A stretch of 64,000 nt of DNA from a virus: positions 1-64,000 of IMG/VR virus record IMGVR_UViG_3300022924_000018. The stretch is one strand, 5' to 3'. A program made the translations under genes and the position numbers. Below are positions 1 through 58,495 of this stretch, one piece after another; position 1 is the stretch's first letter; each line of letters begins with the position of its first letter. The notes beneath the pieces are model-generated. The model saw only the letters and a program-made list of their open reading frames with translations. It did no database searches and was not told the origin of the DNA.

Positions 1-66
1 TAAGAAAATTCACTTAGATTCAGATATGATGATGGAGAGTTAAGTAACTATAGCGATTTCAGTAAT

Positions 67-29761: not shown

Positions 29762-31126
29762 CTTCTTTTTCGTAATATTTATTCATAACCTTTTCTTTCA
29801 TCAGTTGCTCTACCCACATTACATCATGTTTAATTGTATGTCTCCAATGAAATCCCTCTTGCTCTGCATTATCTCTTATTCTTTTCAGAACTTCATATAC
29901 AGCATTCAATTCGGGTAGGCTGGCTTTTCTTAGTTTGTCGTATTCTAAAGTCATCATATCCTTTGTTCTCCTTTAATTTTAAACCTATCTGTAAATAAAG
30001 TTCCTTGTTCTTTAGGTAATATATAATACTGATAAGCATTACTACCACATTCGTTTATTCTTATCTCTTGTGTTGCTTCTAATGATTTGAAGTAGTCTGA
30101 ACTCTTGCGCCATTTAGGTTGTTTCATAATTCAACTCTTGTTATTGCATGTGCAAGCTTCATTCCATCATCTCCATCAAACTCATGTAGTTCTGGATTAG
30201 CCTCTAATACGTAAGGATAATGACCTTTTACCCATCCTTTAGGCGTTAATAACTCAAACTCTAATCCGTTAATACATTCTTCCATTGTAGGCTCTCTGTA
30301 TTTTGTTTCATCAAAAAATGCCATATCTATTTATTTTGTGTTTTCTTAGCCTCGTGTTCAGCCTTAAGTTTGTCGATCATTTCCTGAGTGCCTACAAAAT
30401 ATTGAGGTGTTCCCCAAGCAAGATGGTGTTTAAATTTCTCCATGATCTCTTCTCTGCTCTGTAAAACGGCTACAAGCAGATTACCTACGTTTAGTGTGCC
30501 TCTCCTAGCCATAGTTTCGACGTAGTGATATACCAATGGGTCATTAAGATACTTTTTAAAGCCTTGAGGTAAAGAGTCAATTATCAACTTTTTACATTCT
30601 TCTATTTTATTGTATTCTTCCATATCTCTTTATATTTTATCTATGTCTATAAATTTTGGTAAATCATTTTTATTTTCGCTATAAAATAACAAACCTCTTT
30701 TAGCTATTTGTGGCTCATATTTAGCATCAGGAAATTTAAACAGCTTTTCTGTAGCAAATTCTTTAATCAGATTTAAGTAATACTTTCTGTTAGCCCGGTA
30801 ACTAATTCGTCTATCCCTTGAGTTCTTTTTCATAATCTTATTTGTTTACTCCTCCACTACGCTTTGTTTCTTTACACCATTGGTTATAGAGGGTGTTTAG
30901 TTTTTGTTCCATAATGTTTAATTACTTTCCTAAATGCTTTTCTAATGCGACTATTAACCCAAAAGCAAACTTGTCGTTTTCGTTCCAAAGTTCGCATAAT
31001 AAATTGTACAAGTCTCTTGCTTCATTATCAGTTGCAGTTATCAGTCCGTCTGATATAATGCTTAGTATTTCATGTTTCATATTGTTTAAAGGGATTAGAA
31101 AGGGTGTTTCATTTATTGTACTGTAC

Positions 31127-31900
31127 TTACTTGCATACTATTGAAATCTTGTTAGGCTTACGTTTACGAACGAGTCCGTCCTTACCCAAGAAGTAGTTTG
31201 ATGGATAACATAGTCCATAAAAGGCACGAAGATTAAGTTTGTCCTTAGAAACTATTTCAATGTTCTTCTCTGATTTAATCAATCCAACTGCATTTAACTT
31301 CTTTTGTATTTTGTTGCCTGTTGTTATGCTTCTTCTATTTACAAGAGTTGCTAATCCTTTATTGCTGATACTATAATAATCTTCGGTTCTTTCGGGTGTT
31401 GTGTTTTGCAGATAAGCATTTCTCTTTTGAATTAATTTCTTAGCTTCCTTTGGAGAGATAAAATTATCCTCTTGCAGTTTAATGATTTCGGACTTGAGAT
31501 TGGTTATGTATTGTTGTTGCCTAAAGTTTTTTAATAATCGTGTAAATTGAATGTTTAATATTTGTTTGTTCTTGTCATTATTGTATTCTACGGCAATTAG
31601 GGGCGACTGTAGTGACTTTCTAAGTTTGGTTGACCCAACTATGCAAAGATTCCCGTTGTGCATTGTAACGAGTCCTAATTCGGTAAGCTTCTTTATGTGC
31701 CTTTGTAGAGTAGAAATTGATAGCCCTGTTTTCTTAGAAACTTTTCTATATGAGAAGTTGTAGAATTTAGGATTTTTATAAGTCTTTCTTAGGATGATTA
31801 GGATTGATAATGAACGTTCCCATTTTTGAGCAATAGCTTGTTGTATTACCGCTTCGGGTAGCCAAGTGTATTTGTCGTATGTAATGGAAAGTTTGGTCAA
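31127..31900 (-). CDS. 257-aa double winged-HTH-like DNA-binding protein, copy 1 (TTG start)
   Basis: FSYRKVSKKTGLSISTLQRHIKKLTELGLV; second HTH-like ISNKGLATLVNRRSITTGNKIQKKL; paralogue of 38026-38799. Confidence 0.7.
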   Translation of the reverse strand: MTKLSITYDKYTWLPEAVIQQAIAQKWERSLSILIILRKTYKNPKFYNFSYRKVSKKTGLSISTLQRHIKKLTELGLVTMHNGNLCIVGSTKLRKSLQSPLIAVEYNNDKNKQILNIQFTRLLKNFRQQQYITNLKSEIIKLQEDNFISPKEAKKLIQKRNAYLQNTTPERTEDYYSISNKGLATLVNRRSITTGNKIQKKLNAVGLIKSEKNIEIVSKDKLNLRAFYGLCYPSNYFLGKDGLVRKRKPNKISIVCK

Positions 31901-32050
31901 AGCAAAAGGGTTAGTGAAATTTAACTAGTTACCTTGATTGACGCTGTGGTAGGGCTTTATCGGTAATCTTTGCTAACTCACTAACCCTTTAGGGTTATAT
32001 CTTGATGTTCTTTGTATGATTGTCCTGCCTACCACAGCGGTTTCAACCAT
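31901..32050 (-). ncRNA. Structured 5' leader (pseudoknot-type), copy 1
   Basis: 12-bp pair 32028-32039/31942-31953 interleaved with 13-bp pair 31978-31990/31905-31917. Confidence 0.65.
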
Positions 32051-32054
32051 GCAT

Positions 32055-32062
32055 CAAAGATA
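32055..32062 (-). promoter_or_regulatory. -7 box TATCTTTG for cassette 1
   Basis: ATATTTCATATCTTTGATGCATG, near-identical to the 38947-38954 context. Confidence 0.7.
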
Positions 32063-32071
32063 TGAAATATT

Positions 32072-32263
32072 TTAATATTTAGGAACTTCTAAGTAATCAA
32101 ATAGTTCCTCCCTCAATTCGTCTATTGCGGAGGTCGTTCCAGAACTTAAACCGTAAGCAGGATGCCCTAAATTCTGTGTCGCTTGTAGTAGCTTTTGTTC
32201 TGTTTCCTTTAACACCGTAAGCACCTCTTCTTTTGTTGCTGTCTCTAGTTTGTCGCTTTTCAT
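32072..32263 (-). CDS. Small phage protein, paralogue of 47281-47478
   Basis: Shared VLKETEQKLL.ATQNLGHPAYG.SS.TT..ID.LRE.LFDYLE. Confidence 0.75.
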   Translation of the reverse strand: MKSDKLETATKEEVLTVLKETEQKLLQATQNLGHPAYGLSSGTTSAIDELREELFDYLEVPKY

Positions 32264-32301
32264 TTTTGTTGAATTTTATAATTTTCATGTTTTCTTTTAA
32301 T

Positions 32302-32333
32302 AAAAGGTGGCGCTTATCCAAGACAACCACCTT
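32302..32333 (-). terminator. Terminator downstream of tRNA-like RNA
   Basis: Minus strand AAGGTGG...CCACCTTTT. Confidence 0.5.
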
Positions 32334-32393
32334 CCAAATCTAAATTAACGCATAGCCTATGAAGCTATAATAGGGGCTCTCATCTTCCTATCG

Positions 32394-32582
32394 TGAATGT
32401 GGAGGGACTCAAACCCTCATGGCTACTGTGTTCCTTCATTACCTTTGCGAACTCTCTAAGAAGCTTTGTTTCGGTACACACTCAATTTCACACACTTTTA
32501 TGTACTCCATTTAATCGCATGACGGGATAGTGTGAAATATAGGCCTTATTGTCTTTACCGTCTCTCTTTCCGGCACACATTC
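32394..32582 (-). ncRNA. tRNA-like RNA (~189 nt) with large structured insert replacing anticodon/variable arms
   Basis: Acceptor GAATGTG/CACATTC plus discriminator A, U8G9, D-arm CCG-GAAAGAGAGA-CGG, T-arm GAGGG-TTTGAGT-CCCTC. Confidence 0.65.
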
Positions 32583-32586
32583 ATAT

Positions 32587-33045
32587 TTACTTTTTTAAAT
32601 TAATCGCATATTCCAAAATCAAAAGTGCATCTGCATTTGCAAGTGTAACCTTAATATGAGGATATAACTGTTGTGCTTTTGCTTTAAGTTTATTTTTCCA
32701 TTCGGTTGTTGATAGTTTAGACTTTGTGCCTATAAGCATTGTTTTCTGCCATGCTTGGGGAGAGGTTGTTGTTGTTTTAATTTCATTGGCAATCAAAGCC
32801 ATTTCGATATGTCCGTAGCCTTGACCAAAGTTAAACATTGAAGAACCTCCCATTTTCGGCATACCTCCAACCTTTTCAAGCATACATTCAACATCGTAAT
32901 CGTTTTGTCTTAAGGATTTAAAGAGTTCAAATAAGTCTTTTGGCGTGTCTGGCATTTTATATGAAATGATACTTCCATCAAATGTTCTAACTACTATTGC
33001 ACCATTTGCTCCTGGGTCTATTGCTATTAATGTTTTATTTTCCAT
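32587..33045 (-). CDS. RuvC-like Holliday junction resolvase
   Basis: IAIDPGANGAI, LEKV, FNFGQGYG, PQAWQK, ADALLI. Confidence 0.85.
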   Translation of the reverse strand: MENKTLIAIDPGANGAIVVRTFDGSIISYKMPDTPKDLFELFKSLRQNDYDVECMLEKVGGMPKMGGSSMFNFGQGYGHIEMALIANEIKTTTTSPQAWQKTMLIGTKSKLSTTEWKNKLKAKAQQLYPHIKVTLANADALLILEYAINLKK

Positions 33046-33715
33046 CTGCTGCGGGTTTAATCTCTCCATTATCAAGAGTGAGGGTTAGTTCTTTGTGTTC
33101 TGTTAAAATATGTCTAGCCCATTTAGCACCATCTATAAATCCTTGTCTATAAAAAACTGCTATTTCATTATCCTTATAGTTAAACTGTGCTAATTCATCA
33201 GCATATTCAAGTATGTCTTTTTGCGTTATTGTTTCCATATCATTTTCGTTTTTGTAATCTGCCGTCAAGTTCAATCTTAAACCCTGTACTTTTTAGCTTC
33301 TCCGCTAATTTAAGGCGTTCTGCGACACTATCTAATTGAGGTTGTTCTTTGTCTACCGTGTAAGATATTTTGTTGTGACAGCTTATTTCATTGCCTTTAA
33401 AAGTCTGTTTCATAATTTAAAAATCTTTATCTCTTGGGTCAATTTCTTTTGCCCCCTTTATACACCAAATAAAAATACCTAAAGCTATAACACATATTCC
33501 AAATATGGTAAAAGCAGTTTCACATGTAGACATATCAAAATCTTTTAAAGGGGTTTAACAACACTTCAATTGTACTATAGAAAGGTAAAGGCATCTTATT
33601 AACAACTAACATTGGTGGTTTAGGTTGACTAATGTAATGCTGATTAAGTGCTAATTGTGTTTCTCTAAATGTTGATTGCTTTTTCATAATGATTGGTTTA
33701 ATTTGGTTAGGTAAA

Positions 33716-33809
33716 ATTAGATTGCCAATCGCTGACTGTACAGCGTTCCCGTCTTTTATAAATTCAATTGAACTTAAAGGTTATATCGCTTGGTTTATGG
33801 CAATCTAAT
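33716..33809. other. Intergenic multi-branch stem-loop
   Basis: ATTAGATTGCCA/TGGCAATCTAAT 12-bp closing stem with inner hairpins. Confidence 0.45.
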
Positions 33810-33983
33810 GAGGTTAGTTGATATTCCAACTTGGTCTTTCATTCTCTAATTCAGCTTCCCTTCTATCACGCCTTTCTTGTTCGCTATAATCGGCTAGAAC
33901 ATCTGCTCTATAATCTTCTTCGTTATCCTGTTCAATAGCTATCTGTTCAAGGGTAGGGTTGTCTATGTGCTTTTTCATAGTTT

Positions 33984-34241
33984 TCATGCTTTTGCAAAAT
34001 CTTCCATTATTACTCCCTTATCTGTTATCGTACCTAATTCTACACAAGTAGAATATTTTTCACTCCAAGCCTTGCAATTGTTTCTTGTTTCAGCGCCTCC
34101 ATTTGATTGGGCAATTGATCTTGCCTCTTTTTCATTTTCAGCATTAATAACAAATCCAAAAGCTTTGTCAAACCAAGGTTCCCAAGGATTTACATCAGAT
34201 TTTTCTAATTTATCTTTAGGTCTTAAAATAAATGTTTTCAT
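33984..34241 (-). CDS. Small conserved-type phage protein
   Basis: PWFDKAFGFVINAENEKEAR.IA motif. Confidence 0.6.
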   Translation of the reverse strand: MKTFILRPKDKLEKSDVNPWEPWFDKAFGFVINAENEKEARSIAQSNGGAETRNNCKAWSEKYSTCVELGTITDKGVIMEDFAKA

Positions 34242-35120
34242 ATCTACTTATATTTAGCTTTTTCTTCTTTAGACAGTTTATCAAATTCAGGCTTTAAACT
34301 ATTCATGTGTGCCTGTATCATAGGTAATACTAATCCGTTAAACCCTGAAAACCTAATAGCATACTTAAACAATTCATTCTTCTCTAGTCCTTTAAGGTCT
34401 ATGGTTGTTTTTGATGTCTTTCTTTCTTTAATATCTTTCATGTGTTTATAGTGCTAGTGGTATTCTGAATGTGTGGTAAGGATATTCTTTGTCGAAGATG
34501 CTTTTCTTCTCAAACTTCTCATAAGAGAATTGTAGGTTCTTATTGCCTCCAACAATAGGCATGGTATCGTTAATTGTTAGGTACTTAAATTTTATAAATG
34601 GCGATCTTTTATCTTTACCTATATAAAGTGTACTTTCATTGGCATACCAAACTATTCTATATACTCTATCGTAAACTTTAAACTCTATCTCCCGACTAAA
34701 TTCTTCATCGCCTAAAGAATTATATTGCCCCATTATTTGAGCGCTTTCGAGGACTAATTGTATTTCTTCTAATGTATGTGGCTTCATGTGTTATAAGTTA
34801 TGTGTTGCTAATAAATCAAATAGTTGCTCAAAGAAGTCATTGTCACTAGCGGTCTTAATAAAATCATTGTCACAAAACTCATCATCTCCTAAAATCCACC
34901 CGTTTCTATCTTCCTTTAATTTATAAGCTTTAAGTAGGTGTACTCTGTGAGCGTAAATACGATGTTCCATGCCATTATAAAATGGTTCGGATGCTAATGG
35001 TTCATCTCCAAAGTGAGCAGGATTAGATTTAAGTTCTTCTTCTTTATATTTCTGTAGTAAGTCATAAGACTCTTTTGTTACCATAATATATACGGCATCA
35101 TCTAAATACTTTCCCATAAC

Positions 35121-35624
35121 TTAATTTATCTGCAAATTTTTATTCTCTTTAATTCTTGCACCTTTTACTTTCTCTCCTGCTTCAATAGCATTCTTAACAG
35201 CTTTCTTATCTATTTTGAATGTAGCAGGTACAGGAATTTTAAACTTCTTAGGGATAAGCTTTTCATCCTCTATAATCGTTTCTTTTGAAGTTCTGAATGA
35301 TAGCTTAATGTTCTGCACTTCGATTGATTTAACTTCAAACATTATCATGGCATTCTTTACTCTCTCTTCTAACTTTTCCTTGGCTGTTATTCGTGCCTTT
35401 TTAAGCGCTGTAAGGCGTTCAATTTCTTTATCCAATAAATCTATCTCTCCATCATACTTTTTACAAACATAGCCGTATTTAGCGCTTTTAATCTCAAAGT
35501 TTTCTTTGTTAAGTTCTAAGGCTTTTTCTAATTCTGGTGTTACCTCGCCTCCTGCTTCAACTAATTGTTGAGCAATGGATAAATATTCTTCTTGAAGGCT
35601 GTAAAGATTTAATTCTGTACTCAT
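35121..35624 (-). CDS. Siphovirus Gp157-family protein
   Basis: NLYSL, EIERL..LKK, FRTSK, IDKKAVKNAIEAGEKVKGA...NLQI. Confidence 0.88.
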   Translation of the reverse strand: MSTELNLYSLQEEYLSIAQQLVEAGGEVTPELEKALELNKENFEIKSAKYGYVCKKYDGEIDLLDKEIERLTALKKARITAKEKLEERVKNAMIMFEVKSIEVQNIKLSFRTSKETIIEDEKLIPKKFKIPVPATFKIDKKAVKNAIEAGEKVKGARIKENKNLQIN

Positions 35625-36211
35625 GCTTCCTGTTTTTCTAAATGTTTAAACCTTTTTTCAAACAATCCCTTCAATAACGAATTGCTCTGATATGAAAAGT
35701 GGAGGATACTTATGTACCGCTCCAATTCCTTTTTGCTTTTTATGTTCCCTACTTCCTTTGTTATCCTTAGTAGGGCTTCGCTGAATGTTTCCATCATAAA
35801 GCATAATTAAACTTTTTCAACAGACTTCTATTGGATTTTAATACCTTCTTAACCTCTTCCCATTTCTCAAATGTTTCAGGGTCTAAGCTTTCGAGGCACA
35901 TTTCATTAACAAAATCTAAGGCATCTAATTCACCTCTATCATTCGTTAAATACGCTTGAAAATCTTTTTCTAATTGTTCTTGATTTGTAGCTTCTAAACT
36001 TGTGTTAGCATCGCTTTTAGAGTTAAAAAACTCGTTTAATAAATTTGTTCTTTCCATGATTTTAATTGTTTTTTAAAAATTGTTTATATAAATATTCGTA
36101 TGGCGCATCTTTTTCCCCAAATGAAGCGAATGCCATATTATTACTTTTGTCTATAAGAATTAGTCTTTTCTTGCCTTTACCGTAATCCTTTAATAATATT
36201 TCTAATTTCAT

Positions 36212-36793
36212 CTATGCAGTTTTGCTAAGTTCTTCCTCTAATTCTTTCTCTGTTGCTTTAGATACTGACCATTTCTTTCTAACATCAGCAATCTTATACC
36301 CTTCTCTCATTGCTTTTACAACATTGGCGAAACTAGGAGCATCAGATTTATTTAACCAAGGCAAAGCAGGTTTCTCTTCTTTCTTATCTGTGCCACCTGT
36401 ACTGTTATTACCACTTGCATTGTTACCATCATCATCTTCATCTATGTTAAGCGATAATACAGCCCCTACAGCGTATCTTCTCTGATAAGTGATACATGAG
36501 CCTATTCCTTGAGGATCGTTCTTTGTAGGGTTCATTTCATACGTATCCATTAAGTATTCACCACTCTCTGCATGAATAAGGATTGTAGTTAAACCATGAT
36601 TACCTGTAGGATGCTGACTAATGACTAATCCTGCATCTAATAAGGGTTGATGTATCTCTGAAAGAATATCTGGTAAGGCAGCGTATTTTGATTTAAAGAA
36701 AGGGTTGTTGCTTCCCTTGTTTACCGTTCCTACATTAGTGTGAAACTTTACCAATGCTAATGCAATGTTTTTTATTGATTCTGATTTTTCCAT
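36212..36793 (-). CDS. ERF-family single-strand annealing protein
   Basis: NPFFKSKYA.L, HAESGE, PQGIGSCITYQRRYA...L.I..DDDGN. Confidence 0.92.
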   Translation of the reverse strand: MEKSESIKNIALALVKFHTNVGTVNKGSNNPFFKSKYAALPDILSEIHQPLLDAGLVISQHPTGNHGLTTILIHAESGEYLMDTYEMNPTKNDPQGIGSCITYQRRYAVGAVLSLNIDEDDDGNNASGNNSTGGTDKKEEKPALPWLNKSDAPSFANVVKAMREGYKIADVRKKWSVSKATEKELEEELSKTA

Positions 36794-36795
36794 TG

Positions 36796-37083
36796 TTATT
36801 TCTCTGCGTTAAGTTGTTTAATTAATGCATCTGCATGTTGGACTGCTAGTTTTGATATTTGATCAGGTGAATATGCTTTACTATTTGTTTGTGTATAGCA
36901 TCCTTCTGCATTAGCTAATATTCCTTGCATAGCTTTAGTAGCTATATAAGCTCTAATTGTTAAGCCTCCCTCTGTGTAGTTAACCATACCTAAGCTGTCA
37001 CCATCCATTCTGTCTTCGTATTCTTGCCTGTATTTCAGAAGTGGAGTTAATGATTCATTTGGTTCTGTTTTCATATTAATCAA
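36796..37083 (-). CDS. Small phage protein (GLTIR.Y.A.KAMQG family)
   Basis: GLTIRAYIATKAMQGILAN...ADALI. Confidence 0.65.
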   Translation of the reverse strand: MINMKTEPNESLTPLLKYRQEYEDRMDGDSLGMVNYTEGGLTIRAYIATKAMQGILANAEGCYTQTNSKAYSPDQISKLAVQHADALIKQLNAEK

Positions 37084-38025
37084 GTCTTAAATCCCATCTA
37101 CGTTCAAGAATTGTCTCATGGGATAGTTTATGTTCTTTATCTTTTGTTTTAACCTCTTTAGGAGAGGTGTAAGCTTCTATTTCTTTATCTGACATAAATA
37201 GCCCTGTGTGCGAGTTAAAAGGTCTTCCATTAGGCTTAATTACGATGTATAGAGGTAGATGCTTATAGGGTTGGTGTTTCTTCTTTGCCATGATGCTTTA
37301 AATCTATAGTCCACATTAAGAAATTGGTATAGTCTGCCATCATTACTGTAATGTTATGCAGAAGTGCTACATAAGCTTTGTATTTGTAACCTGATGGATA
37401 TTTAACTTTATCCATTTCAATGCCCATAGCTAAACTACTGTATCCATCAGAGCCTAACCAGACTCTAAAAGTGTTTTCTTTATCTATTTCATCGGGCATT
37501 ATAGAAGTTATACCAAAAAGTAGATTCCTAATGTCCTCTACAATATCGTTTTCTGATTTTACTGTTGTTAATGTCATCACTTCACATAATTAATCTTGTC
37601 ATCTAATGCTTTCCATTCTAACTCTACTATGAAATCTTTTAAATCCCATAGTTCATTTCTCCTAGCTATAGACTCTACTCTCTCAAAACGCTTTCTATCT
37701 ATTCCTAAATCAATGCTTTCCTTTTCTAGGGTGTCTATTCTTGCCTTTATTTGGGCTTTAATTGCGTCTATCATGGCTGTAATGATTTAAGGTCTTCTAT
37801 TATCTCTTTAAAAATGGGTATAATCATAGTTAATGACGCTTTAGATTGAATGGCAAATTGATTTAACTTACCTTGAAGTAACCTTTCTGACTGTTCGGAT
37901 GTGATTAAGTATCCTTCATACTTTAAAAGTAAAGTTTTAATTTCCTGATGTTCCATATTTGTTATTTTGTTTATGTTTTGTTGTTTAAACCCATTTCAAT
38001 AATTTCACTCTACTTCTTATTCCTT

Positions 38026-38799
38026 TTACCGGACTGTGATTTTATTAGGTAGGATTTGGAACACAATGCCGTGTTTAGAGAGTTGATAGTTGTTGCTAAT
38101 GTACTTCTCCCTAAATGCTCTATAGTTTGGCAAGTAGTCAGCCATTACTATGTTACGTTCCGATTTTATAAGTTTTAATCTGTTAAGGTCTTTTTGAATT
38201 TTAACCCCTGTTCGTGCGCTGCGGTTACAGAGCTTTCCAAATGATTTGTTTGATAGCATTAAATAATCTAGTTTACCAATTTCAGCGTTTTTGTATTGTG
38301 GCATATCGTTCATTTTCTTTCTTGTAAGCTTTATGTCGCTAATTGAAAGTTTGCAATCTGCCTTAGGAATATCAAGGATGTTTTGGCGTAACTTATTTGC
38401 TTTATGCTGTAAGTGTAATTTTCTACGTATTAGTGTCTGTCTTAAATATGTTAGTTGATCTTGCTTGTTATTGTAGATTTTTATAGGAACTAATGTTGTT
38501 TTGTATTGTGCTTTTAAAGCGTGGGTTGATTTAAGGTAAAGGTTGCCATTTCTTATAGAAGCTAAATCAAGTGAAATAAGCTTGTGTAAGGCACGATGAA
38601 GTGTAGCGGGTGAACAACCTATCTTTTTGGATAAATCAGCGTATGTGAAGTTATAATGTACTGGTTTGCGCTTTAATGAAGCTAATCTTATAAAATAACC
38701 CAATTGATTTTCAAAACCTTGTTCAAAGGCAATTTGTATCAGTCCTAGTGGAAGATACTTATAGCTGAATGGTTTTAATTGTTTGGGTTCGTACTTCAA
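38026..38799 (-). CDS. 257-aa double winged-HTH-like DNA-binding protein, copy 2 (TTG start)
   Basis: FTYADLSKKIGCSPATLHRALHKLISLDLA; LSNKSFGKLCNRSARTGVKIQKDL. Confidence 0.7.
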   Translation of the reverse strand: MKYEPKQLKPFSYKYLPLGLIQIAFEQGFENQLGYFIRLASLKRKPVHYNFTYADLSKKIGCSPATLHRALHKLISLDLASIRNGNLYLKSTHALKAQYKTTLVPIKIYNNKQDQLTYLRQTLIRRKLHLQHKANKLRQNILDIPKADCKLSISDIKLTRKKMNDMPQYKNAEIGKLDYLMLSNKSFGKLCNRSARTGVKIQKDLNRLKLIKSERNIVMADYLPNYRAFREKYISNNYQLSKHGIVFQILPNKITVR

Positions 38800-38943
38800 T
38801 GATAAAAGGGGTTAAACATTTCACGTTGATACTAAACTCTGCCAAGCGCCCTGTATCTTATGATTATGTCAACCCCTTTAAGGATATATTTTGGTAATGT
38901 ATAATGCTTATGACGTGGGCGCTTGGCGTTGCCTTATATCATG
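38800..38943 (-). ncRNA. Structured 5' leader (pseudoknot-type), copy 2
   Basis: 11-bp pair 38917-38927/38841-38851 interleaved with pair 38866-38879/38805-38819. Confidence 0.65.
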
Positions 38944-38946
38944 CAC

Positions 38947-38954
38947 CAAAGATA
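38947..38954 (-). promoter_or_regulatory. -7 box TATCTTTG for cassette 2
   Basis: ATATTCATATCTTTGGTGCATG. Confidence 0.7.
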
Positions 38955-38964
38955 TGAATATTTT

Positions 38965-39459
38965 TTATTTATGCTCTTTAATAAGCTTTTTTATATCAAC
39001 TTCTTTAAACTCTTCTTCAAAATCGCTACCGTCTTTATACTCTAAAGTAAACAGTTTGTTGTGTTTAAATGCTTTAGGCAGAATTTTTAAATCAATTCCA
39101 TCCCACTCAATATCTTCGTAATGACGCATAAAGAAAACTGATTTACCTTTTATGTCCTCAGCAATTGCTTTCTCCATCATAACATCAAATACAACAACGC
39201 TACCTGTATAACTTCCGTAACCACATAAAGGGACTAAAGAACTGTTTGCGTAAATCTCATCAGCTGATTTAACGGCATCCCAAGCCTGATAAGGTTCGTG
39301 CCATGCGTGACCTACTACATCATCGAATATGTCACCTTCTGTATTTATTCCAGAAGTTTCTAAAATCCTTCTTAATTGCCTTTTTGAAGTTCTTACCTCA
39401 TCATCCTGAATGTAATCACTATCTATAAATATTCTTTTCATAATTTCTTTTTTTGCCAT
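38965..39459 (-). CDS. Hypothetical phage protein
   Basis: 164-aa ORF. Confidence 0.6.
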   Translation of the reverse strand: MAKKEIMKRIFIDSDYIQDDEVRTSKRQLRRILETSGINTEGDIFDDVVGHAWHEPYQAWDAVKSADEIYANSSLVPLCGYGSYTGSVVVFDVMMEKAIAEDIKGKSVFFMRHYEDIEWDGIDLKILPKAFKHNKLFTLEYKDGSDFEEEFKEVDIKKLIKEHK

Positions 39460-47284: not shown

Positions 47285-47478
47285 GGTGTTTTGGTATTTA
47301 TTTCTAAGTAATCAAATAAATTCTCTCTCAAATTGTCAATAGATATAGTAGTCGACGAACTTATTCCGTAAGCGGGATGACCTAGATTTTGTGTTGCCTC
47401 TAATAATTTTTGTTCAGTTTCTTTTAAAACTTTAAGCACTTGCTGTTTTGTTGCTTTTTTTAGATTATCGCTTTTCAT
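47281..47478 (-). CDS. Small phage protein, paralogue of 32072-32263
   Basis: High visible identity to 32072-32263. Confidence 0.75.
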   Translation of the reverse strand: MKSDNLKKATKQQVLKVLKETEQKLLEATQNLGHPAYGISSSTTISIDNLRENLFDYLEINTKTP

Positions 47479-47761
47479 TTTTAATTATTTTTAATATTAT
47501 TTGATATGAACCTTTTAAGTCTTTGGAGTTAATAAGTTCATTTAGCTCTAAAATTAGATTATTTTGTTTTTTGCATAGAATTAATCTATCATATACTTTT
47601 TTTACCCAATTAATATCTTCATCAAACTTTAACCATTCTATATAATCAAAAGGATTATTTATAAGACCTTTTAGAGAATCGGCACAATCATACCATCCCA
47701 AATCTGTCTTCGCCATTCCCATAAATTCAGCTATACGTTTATTTTCTTTGCTATTATACAT
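47465..47761 (-). CDS. Phage protein, distant paralogue of 44634-45050
   Basis: NKRIAEFMG. Confidence 0.6.
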   Translation of the reverse strand: MYNSKENKRIAEFMGMAKTDLGWYDCADSLKGLINNPFDYIEWLKFDEDINWVKKVYDRLILCKKQNNLILELNELINSKDLKGSYQIILKIIKNEKR

Positions 47762-50478: not shown

Positions 50479-50708
50479 ACTAACAGAGTACATGGTTCAA
50501 GAACCTAAAAGAAAAGGTGAATTTCTTTATAACAGAGCAATATTCATTTGGCATAATAACTACGAGCAAGATTTGAAAGTTCATTGGGGAATGAAATTAG
50601 ATAAGTCAAAAGGGAAAATGGATAGCTATGGCGAGGTTAGAAGCAAAGGCAAGACTATGTTTCGTATCCGTCCAAAAAATGAAAATGAATGGATTAATTA
50701 TTAATAAT

Positions 50709-58132: not shown

Positions 58133-58495
58133 ATGAAAATAGACAGGCAATTAGTTTTAAATAAATTTGACGGAAAATGCGCTTACTGCGGTTGTGATTT
58201 AGAGAAAGGATGGAACTTAGACCATAAAACTCCTCAATGGCATTGTGAGGGTAAAAAACCATTAGCATCAATAGAGCAAGTACATTGTATGGAAAATTAT
58301 ATGCCTTCATGTAGAAGTTGTAATTTATTTAAGTCAGGTAATAGTATTGAAGGTTTTCGAAAACACATTGAATCACAAATAGAAACATTGAGAAGAGATA
58401 GACCTACATTTAGGGTTGCAGAAAGATTTGGACTTATCGAATGCAAACCTAAGTCAGTAGAATTTTACTTTGAAATTTATGAAAGAAAACCCTAA
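58133..58495 (+). CDS. HNH endonuclease
   Basis: CAYCG, LDHKTP, NYMPSCRSCNLFK. Confidence 0.88.
   Translation: MKIDRQLVLNKFDGKCAYCGCDLEKGWNLDHKTPQWHCEGKKPLASIEQVHCMENYMPSCRSCNLFKSGNSIEGFRKHIESQIETLRRDRPTFRVAERFGLIECKPKSVEFYFEIYERKP

Follow-up and report, generated by a model that had tools for sequence, protein, structure and literature searches.

The first 64 kb of a 76.6-kb virus record in IMG/VR (IMGVR_UViG_3300022924_000018), the window analysed here, carry two copies of a compact unit in which a promoter box is followed by a structured leader RNA and a TTG-started gene for a 257-aa tandem winged-helix protein. The leader is of a functionally familiar kind but new as an RNA motif, and the family of proteins that it precedes in this exchangeable cassette is likewise new and uncharacterised. 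The two cassettes (31127-32065 and 38026-38957, both on the minus strand; hereafter c1 and c2 of the phage genome under study, G000) have an identical build and lie within a long block of small early-type genes. Each reads, in order, an 18-nt box, the helix arms A..B..C..A'..C'..B', a short U-run, the TTG start and a 257-codon frame, with the box about 10 nt ahead of the 5' arm of helix A in both (Table 1). A preliminary description of this DNA had reported two paralogous cassettes with a near-identical box, this order of arms, a TTG 4-5 nt past B' and a 257-aa product, and all of this was found on the minus strand where it had been placed. In c1, helix A comprises 12 and helix B 13 perfect base pairs, and the TTG lies 4 nt past B'. 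In c2, helix A comprises 11 perfect pairs and the TTG lies 5 nt past B'; the B arms of this copy do pair as described, but not over the 14/15 nt given then: the stem has 9 perfect pairs, or 11 with G.U.

These features stand out from the rest of the DNA. The box, TCATATCTTTGRTGCATG, has only its two cassette sites in the window at up to three mismatches (0.11 expected), and a perfect inverted repeat of at least 11 bp occurs in just 5 of 900 170-nt segments of the genome, two of the five being the cassettes. The folding z-scores of the leaders are -2.8 (c1) and -2.2 (c2). On direct reading, neither leader contains an open reading frame (ORF) except for ATG-CAT-GGT-TGA in c1.

Table 1. Parts of the two cassettes in the order of transcription, with positions in the window.
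Feature	Position	Strand	Sequence	Remarks
c1 promoter box	32048..32065	minus	TCATATCTTTGATGCATG	holds TAtcTTTG (Bacteroidota-type -7 element)
c1 helix A, 5' arm	32028..32039	minus	CGCTGTGGTAGG	about 10 nt past the inferred transcript start
c1 helix B, 5' arm	31978..31990	minus	AAAGGGTTAGTGA	sequence-conserved motif AAAGGGKT
c1 helix C, 5' arm	31962..31966	minus	TTACC	pairing kept with other sequences in c2, G003 and G017
c1 helix A, 3' arm	31942..31953	minus	CCTACCACAGCG	within the apical loop of the B/C hairpin
c1 helix C, 3' arm	31929..31933	minus	GGTAA	
c1 helix B, 3' arm	31905..31917	minus	TCACTAACCCTTT	followed by the U-run (TTTTGCTTTG); spans -5 to about -17 of the start
c1 gene P0001	31127..31900	minus		TTG (31898-31900); 257-aa tandem winged-helix protein
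c2 promoter box	38940..38957	minus	TCATATCTTTGGTGCATG	
c2 helix A, 5' arm	38917..38927	minus	GCCAAGCGCCC	
c2 helix B, 5' arm	38869..38879	minus	AAAGGGGTTGA	
c2 helix C, 5' arm	38853..38857	minus	GATAC	
c2 helix A, 3' arm	38841..38851	minus	GGGCGCTTGGC	1 nt past C
c2 helix C, 3' arm	38828..38832	minus	GTATC	
c2 helix B, 3' arm	38805..38815	minus	TTAACCCCTTT	followed by TTATCA and the start
c2 gene P0002	38026..38799	minus		TTG (38797-38799); 257-aa paralogue of P0001

The leader recurs in related phages. Our comparative set consists of ten leaders in eight phage genomes, one of them, in G004, a weak case: c1 and c2 of G000, a c1-type and a solo leader of G001, the leaders of G002, G003, G017 and G045, the leader-like element of G004, and the G004/G005 variants. 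The family gene itself is present in six IMG/VR records, G001-G005 and G017, with one copy each, the protein match in G017 being marginal (E 3e-4, residues 31-118). The c1-type leader of G001 and those of G003 and G017 show the order A..B..C..A'..C'..B' followed by a TTG start, and in these three as well as in c1 and c2 the 9-15 bp of B/B' end 4-7 nt ahead of the start. G002 interleaves a 22-bp helix A with a different B, and in G004 and G005 helix A is kept and encloses a compact terminator-like hairpin, with no interleaved B. Helices were scored per sequence by script; MAFFT alignments set helix A out of register, and an alignment made with a covariance model (A12), which mixes in antisense matches of the palindromic B hairpin, was kept out of the counts.

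No two lineages have the same helix A sequence, and yet pairing over 10-15 bp is retained throughout; a sequence is shared only by the two closest copies, c1 and its 86%-identical orthologue in G001. That A and C differ between the cassettes of G000 while pairing is kept, as first described, can be read directly from the two copies, and the related phages add covariation: between c1 and G045, whose A helices can be aligned, two pairs differ, each by a compensatory change (C-G to T-A; T-A to A-T). Between the leaders of c1 and its G001 orthologue, 11 of the 12 differences fall in loops, and the one stem change gives U.G (Fisher p 0.03). Sense-strand G.U pairs are found in helix B of four leaders (G001, c2, G003 and G017) and inside helix A of G017. 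As a pattern of sequence change, these wobble pairs favour sense-strand RNA as the level of action; helix B and G017 supply the signal, not the overall count of G.U against A.C extensions of perfect stems, which at 11 versus 7 is not decisive alone.

A covariance model (R1) trained on four c1-like leaders recovers cassette 2, which was outside the training set, at 30 bits (E 2e-4), and detects a new leader in G017 at 39 bits (E 2e-6). The layout shared by the ten leaders, the covariation and the detection of c2 by R1 together show that the arrangement is not due to chance. By these comparisons the leader structure is real, conserved and new to Rfam, and the covariance model, as had been proposed with the preliminary description, points the same way, with four leaders as its training set. 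Looser scans add less: interleaved stems of 9+8 bp gave 29 matches against 13 in shuffled sequence, a noisy signal, and a box followed by a 10-bp stem was seen 9 times against 3.8 expected, an excess so modest that single extra matches (such as G004 50564-50680) are treated as weak cases. On the plus strand of G017 (70816-71800; L153 1501-1647 and downstream), the new leader is immediately followed by the gene of a highly divergent family member, a 279-aa open frame with a TTG start that the protein profile hidden Markov model reaches only at E 3e-4.

No catalogued RNA explains the leader. Rfam 15 yields no match at gathering score in the 64-kb window, and at E up to 5 the stretch 31000-39100 gives two chance-level matches only, both outside the leaders; the G001 solo leader likewise has no Rfam match, and no entry of Rfam, the PDB or the phage databases searched accounts for the element. 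Neither ARAGORN nor Rfam detects a tRNA or tmRNA in the window. A group I intron was considered and rejected: the helices are too long for P3/P7, no host gene is interrupted and Rfam reports no intron match. Searches beyond the set above were equally sparse. A scan of IMG/VR with the 18-nt promoter box returned 23 matches, about the chance expectation, among which G001 alone is real; the three matches to a c2-type B motif are all chance, as is L145 in the c1-type scan. Metagenome contigs gave G001 only, genome contigs gave nothing, and phages in GenBank have neither a DNA nor a protein match. To our knowledge, structured regulatory RNAs of Bacteroidota phages are almost unknown.

The sequence around the leaders fits a host of this phylum. 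TAnnTTTG is the -7 promoter element of Bacteroidota, seen in Bacteroides and Flavobacterium promoters, and by sequence the 18-nt box contains such an element, TAtcTTTG. A -7 box lies 3-19 nt ahead of helix A in nine of the ten related leaders, G003 having the near-match CAccTTTG, against a genome-wide background of one box per 1.8 kb of strand. The variant is TAtcTTTG in c1, c2, G001 and G017, TAtaTTTG in G002 and the G001 solo leader, TAcaTTTG in G004 and TActTTTG in G005. TTG is the start codon in seven of eight family genes. Only 9 of 61 long ORFs are preceded by a motif resembling a Shine-Dalgarno (SD) sequence, and 36 of the 61 have an A at -3. The ribosomes of Bacteroidia ignore the SD sequence, and initiation in Flavobacterium johnsoniae is tuned by structure between -20 and +20 (PMC6847099); the scarcity of SD motifs and the A at -3 match this mode of initiation. 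From such signals, the host of this ~77-kb leaf-litter phage probably belongs to the Bacteroidota.

How might such a leader work? With moderate confidence, we favour a cis-acting brake on expression, which would operate by occluding the initiation region or by attenuating transcription. Each cassette would be an autonomous accessory early-gene unit of a ~77-kb phage, whose host-type -7 promoter (TAnnTTTG) would start a transcript that folds over its first ~145 nt. In this fold, the long hairpin of B and C would bring its 3' arm and U-run to within 4-5 nt of the weak TTG; stem B had already been assigned to the initiation region, and B' does adjoin this start. Helix A, with its 10-15 bp, would join the B/C hairpin's apical loop to the RNA's 5' end, giving an H-type pseudoknot, probably stacked in the order B-C-A. 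The C-to-A' linker measures 1-2 nt in c2 and G003 and 8 nt in c1, with A' to C' spanning ~8 nt, and the short C-to-A' linkers favour a coaxially stacked pseudoknot, as far as linker lengths can tell. An SD-independent host needs an unstructured initiation region, and with this fold very little translation would start there; alternatively or in addition, some transcripts may be terminated at the B hairpin and its U-run. Helix A would lock the fold, clamp the apical loop and protect or bury the 5' end. The dose of the gene product would presumably be harmful, as with replication initiators or homing-endonuclease-like DNA binders, and the whole unit would be swapped between phages. As for the initial proposal of a pseudoknot or a two-state switch, a pseudoknot-capable structure is upheld, conserved and covarying; nested folds with A only or B only lie 1.4-8 kcal/mol apart, the arms do not overlap, and a static and a switching form are indistinguishable from sequence.

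Several points weigh against a brake of this kind. The transcript start, termination at the U-run and the effect on translation are all inferred, and the harm done by the product's dose is a guess. B' stops 4-5 nt before the start codon, which thus lies outside it, and the U-runs are short (3-6 U) and receive no call in a simple terminator scan. The different fold in G004 and G005 means that a single mechanism may not fit all members. Helix A is perfectly Watson-Crick in nine of the ten leaders, which also fits a DNA-level role or a templated origin, and those ten, several of them closely related, are all the leaders compared.

The nearest precedent, by analogy, is found in the homing-endonuclease genes of T-even phages: I-TevI, I-TevII, I-TevIII, segB and Aeh1 mobE are silenced by hairpins over their initiation regions, and shorter transcripts that can be translated arise from a late promoter within the hairpin (PMC2988022). 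Both there and here, an accessory, exchangeable gene for a DNA-binding protein stands in an early unit with its own promoter and a stable structure at its initiation region. In the cassettes, however, the sole box lies upstream of all arms and no -7 box occurs between B and B', although only the -7 type was scanned and late promoters may differ. They also differ in having a second, long-range helix, which gives a pseudoknot, and a TTG start; there is no SD sequence for a hairpin to mask, and the protein lacks a nuclease domain.

The preliminary description had instead looked to plasmid replication control. In the repZ/repA systems of IncIalpha, IncB and IncL/M plasmids, the rep start is activated when a leader loop pairs beside it, translation of a leader peptide is required, and an antisense Inc RNA blocks the loop. 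The likeness lies in a leader hairpin loop that pairs with a distant segment of the same RNA ahead of a gene for a winged-helix-type DNA-binding protein. In the cassettes, though, the loop segment A' finds its partner not at the initiation region but 120-130 nt ahead of the start, in the A arm at the RNA's 5' end; no leader peptide is present and no antisense -7 box is conserved, TAnnTTTG being absent from the antisense strand of six of seven leaders (for this promoter type only). Control in the manner of IncI repZ is therefore not borne out.

Comparative genomics supports the earlier suggestion of a self-contained module, in that promoter, leader and gene are exchanged as a unit. G000 and G001 have only scattered nucleotide similarity and their shared proteins are mostly 23-57% identical, but 31100-32074, almost exactly cassette 1, is 86% identical. 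The cassette occupies three different places of the early block in G001, G003 and G005, and the GC skew of both cassettes in G000 is opposite to that of their neighbours. None of 37 helicase-related contigs, of which CheckV rates five at least 90% complete, carries the winged-helix family; among these contigs is the closest helicase relative, G006, which ends in direct terminal repeats and is 74% complete by CheckV, and G026 has only a marginal 45-residue match to the family (E 6e-4). Among sequencing runs, the sequence turns up in a leaf-litter metagenome, the probable source sample, and with a small share in one other, none of the runs listed being of RNA; their contigs show no variants within the cassettes. 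Two more genes, for an ERF-family recombinase (36212-36793) and an HNH endonuclease-like protein (58133-58495), are ~80% identical to G001 in the same island pattern, the HNH gene lying elsewhere and inverted in G001, and by this pattern they are further exchanged modules. On the sequence comparisons, we class the unit as an accessory, exchangeable, 'moron-like' cassette.

Whether the unit might also move by itself is a separate matter, and self-mobility is putative. It could be a homing-like selfish cassette, or its promoter and leader could act as a recombination linker resembling the promoter early stem-loops (PeSLs) of T4-type phages; either would be compatible with a regulatory leader, and we regard both as possible rather than likely. 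The coincidence of the G001 island with the cassette borders in otherwise unalignable genomes, the sporadic distribution at variable positions, the deviant GC skew and the same island pattern of the HNH and ERF genes all speak for such movement. So does the appearance of the same leader before a different downstream region in G001 and, as a weak case, of a leader-like element before a nuclease-like gene in G004. A single, distant metagenomic database protein of 465 aa, P0082, carries GIY-YIG and NUMOD1 domains as in group I intron endonucleases, fused to the family's helical hairpin and second winged helix, which shows that the C-terminal half of the family can be the DNA-binding part of a homing endonuclease. 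In the 257-aa proteins themselves, however, Pfam, NCBIfam, PADLOC and fold searches reveal neither a nuclease nor a recombinase domain, direct reading found no terminal repeats or target duplications at the cassette borders, and no clean empty site was found, since the neighbouring DNA is mosaic too. PeSLs are ~50-60 bp long, consist of a stem-loop followed by a promoter and recur many times per genome (PMC2839356, PMC4122927). They share with our element a composite of promoter and structure at the borders of variable, swapped early genes, but the element here is ~165 nt long, has the promoter ahead of the structure and comes in two copies, its box occurring only twice in the window.

Leaders also occur without the winged-helix gene. 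G001 (70240-70815, minus strand; L009 10240-10815), at a position corresponding to cassette 2, and G045 (L143 10457-10810) each carry a full A..B..C..A'..C'..B' solo leader followed by an 8-codon ORF (MQ...) that resembles the N terminus of the family. Beyond it lies a ~430-nt ORF-free stretch, about 71% conserved between the two genomes and including a hairpin with compensatory changes; in G001 the next gene encodes an RNase H-like protein. These regions could be decayed cassettes or a further non-coding RNA. Less clear is an element in G004 (50534-50680, minus strand; L137 10534-10680), a weak case: the gene for a 185-aa basic protein with a weak match to DUF2726 (PD-(D/E)XK nuclease-like) is immediately preceded by a -7-like box and by helices A (10 bp) and B (9 bp), which interleave. 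Judged by its sequence, the element may be the same leader type on different cargo, or chance.

Such leaders lend some weight to a reading that we consider unlikely, in which the leader is a stand-alone small RNA (sRNA) of ~145 nt, or about 55-60 nt in G004 and G005, that ends at the B hairpin and U-run. Its A arm would pair with A' on read-through or operon transcripts in the manner of the C4 and CI RNAs, and the unrelated A sequences of the two cassettes of one genome would then provide heteroimmune control of each. Every leader indeed ends in a hairpin and U-run, and in G004 and G005 a single-stranded 5' A arm followed by a terminator-like hairpin, with A' 60-70 nt further on, resembles a classical sRNA. 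Against this, A and A' always lie in cis on the same transcript and need no trans partner, neither A sequence recurs elsewhere in the 76.6-kb genome, the U-runs are weak in several copies, and neither C4 nor any other Rfam family is matched. In P1/P7 C4 and P4 CI, complementary segments of the same strand lie upstream of the regulated phage gene and differ in sequence between relatives. This likeness, already drawn in the preliminary description, is retained as a concept; our leaders differ in lacking a match to the Rfam C4 family, any sign of processing and any trans target, and nothing found here speaks for action in trans. Lysogeny genes are absent from the window.

The proteins behind the leaders form a family of their own. 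P0001 and P0002 are 36% identical (E 5e-36). AlphaFold gives models of the whole protein (predicted local distance difference test score 82) and, separately, of its C-terminal half (92). In them the chain forms a first winged helix (residues 11-105), then a helical hairpin (110-165) and finally another winged helix (about 175-254), which bears out the two helix-turn-helix (HTH)-like segments first noticed. In Pfam, only the generic HTH_36 and HTH_24 pass (residues 35-94), while RP-C (21 bits, cut-off 24.4) and RepL (14.3, cut-off 20.3) stay below threshold; matches to PHROGs 428 and 270, which are replication-initiation families, are weak (E 1e-6 at best) and confined to the N terminus. The best hits of a PDB fold search (Z 7.3-6.0) are generic winged HTH (wHTH) folds, 4pta (RepA_N) at Z 7.0 being tied with ArsR and MarR regulators, and the C-terminal domain alone reaches Z 5.7 or less. 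Full-length matches in BFVD are uncharacterised viral proteins only, rows named 'replication protein O / initiator' being far weaker, and PADLOC reports only generic wHTH similarity, to Csa3, CasR and AbiEi. A full HMMER scan gathers 693 cluster representatives at E 1e-3 or better; the ~30 members looked up all come from Logan, ENA or JGI metagenomes, several on 62-77 kb contigs, and just one of them has a name, a generic one. On the models and profiles, the protein is a DNA-binding tandem winged helix of uncharacterised function, and its resemblance to initiators is a lead rather than membership.

Of the preliminary idea of a Rep-like tandem wHTH, the tandem winged helix thus holds, while the similarity to Rep is generic or weak. 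Phage initiators and organisers (lambda O-like PHROGs 428/270/391, the N-terminal domains of RepA_N, 4pta, and of DnaD/DnaB) share with the family an N-terminal winged helix of the HTH_36/HTH_24 type, a place in the replication/recombination block and a weak similarity of profile and fold. They differ from it in that the scores here are weak (E 1e-6 at best; a Z of 7 tied with generic wHTH folds), that iterons are lacking, that the gene is absent from close relatives and duplicated, and that a helical hairpin followed by another generic winged helix makes up the C-terminal half.

This resemblance bears on the proposal that the repeats act as DNA, with A and A' as operator half-sites for looping and autorepression, as part of a replication origin, or as the ends of an invertible segment whose flip would make B a second copy of B' and free the start. 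The weak initiator matches, the perfect Watson-Crick pairing of helix A in nine leaders, the identical A of c1 and its 86%-identical orthologue, and the location of the cassettes in a replication/recombination block near the ERF recombinase gene are all compatible with it. We nevertheless judge it improbable. The sense-strand G.U pairs (B in four leaders, A in G017) become A.C mismatches on the other strand, perfect complementarity over 10-15 bp far exceeds the needs of half-sites, and the spacing of the arms varies from 62 to 98 bp. No iterons or direct-repeat arrays occur in either cassette or the 200 nt around them, leaders with their own A exist where the genome region has no family gene, and the closest relative does without the gene, which is therefore no essential initiator. 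Inversion, finally, would lack a linked recombinase, and no inverted form appears in the contigs, a weak point that draws on contigs only.

Most improbable of all is an RNA-plus-protein selfish module in which helix A would be a programmable specificity element, as a C4-like immunity or address or as a protein-bound guide, and the cassettes two mutually independent systems spreading between phages: A, earlier taken for a specificity address, varies as an unconstrained helix would, has no second copy in the 76.6-kb genome, and comes in versions of their own in leaders that lack the winged-helix gene, in G001 and G045 and, less firmly, in G004.

What the finding means depends in part on the role of helix A. 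Should the leader be only a translational brake, it would be a modest addition to the known leader types; a trans or guide role of helix A would, if true, make it a new kind of phage system. The silencing of genes at SD-independent initiation is an open question that can now be tested, here on a natural, compact, covarying pseudoknot ahead of a non-AUG start. The element further serves as a marker for several hundred uncharacterised proteins of the tandem winged-helix family, found almost only in metagenomic phages of ~70-77 kb, and clearly exemplifies how promoter, leader and gene travel together as a block between genomes that otherwise do not align.

A few minor observations concern the surroundings of the cassettes and a related phage. 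Between the two copies, at 33716-33809 on the minus strand, ~70 nt lie inside a long-range helix of 12 perfect bp (TTAGATTGCCA... / ...TGGCAATCTAA); it is one of only five such helices in the genome, has no -7 box and directly precedes a 50-aa ORF (33535-33687). A paralogue of the 63-aa gene that lies just upstream of cassette 1 heads the leftward gene block, and window positions 32087-32283 and 47302-47498 form a 197-nt direct repeat of 75% identity. In G006, a phage without the winged-helix family, an ORF-poor stretch (L139 2450-2600) contains three interleaved helices of 8-10 bp in the order 1..2..3..2'..1'..3'.

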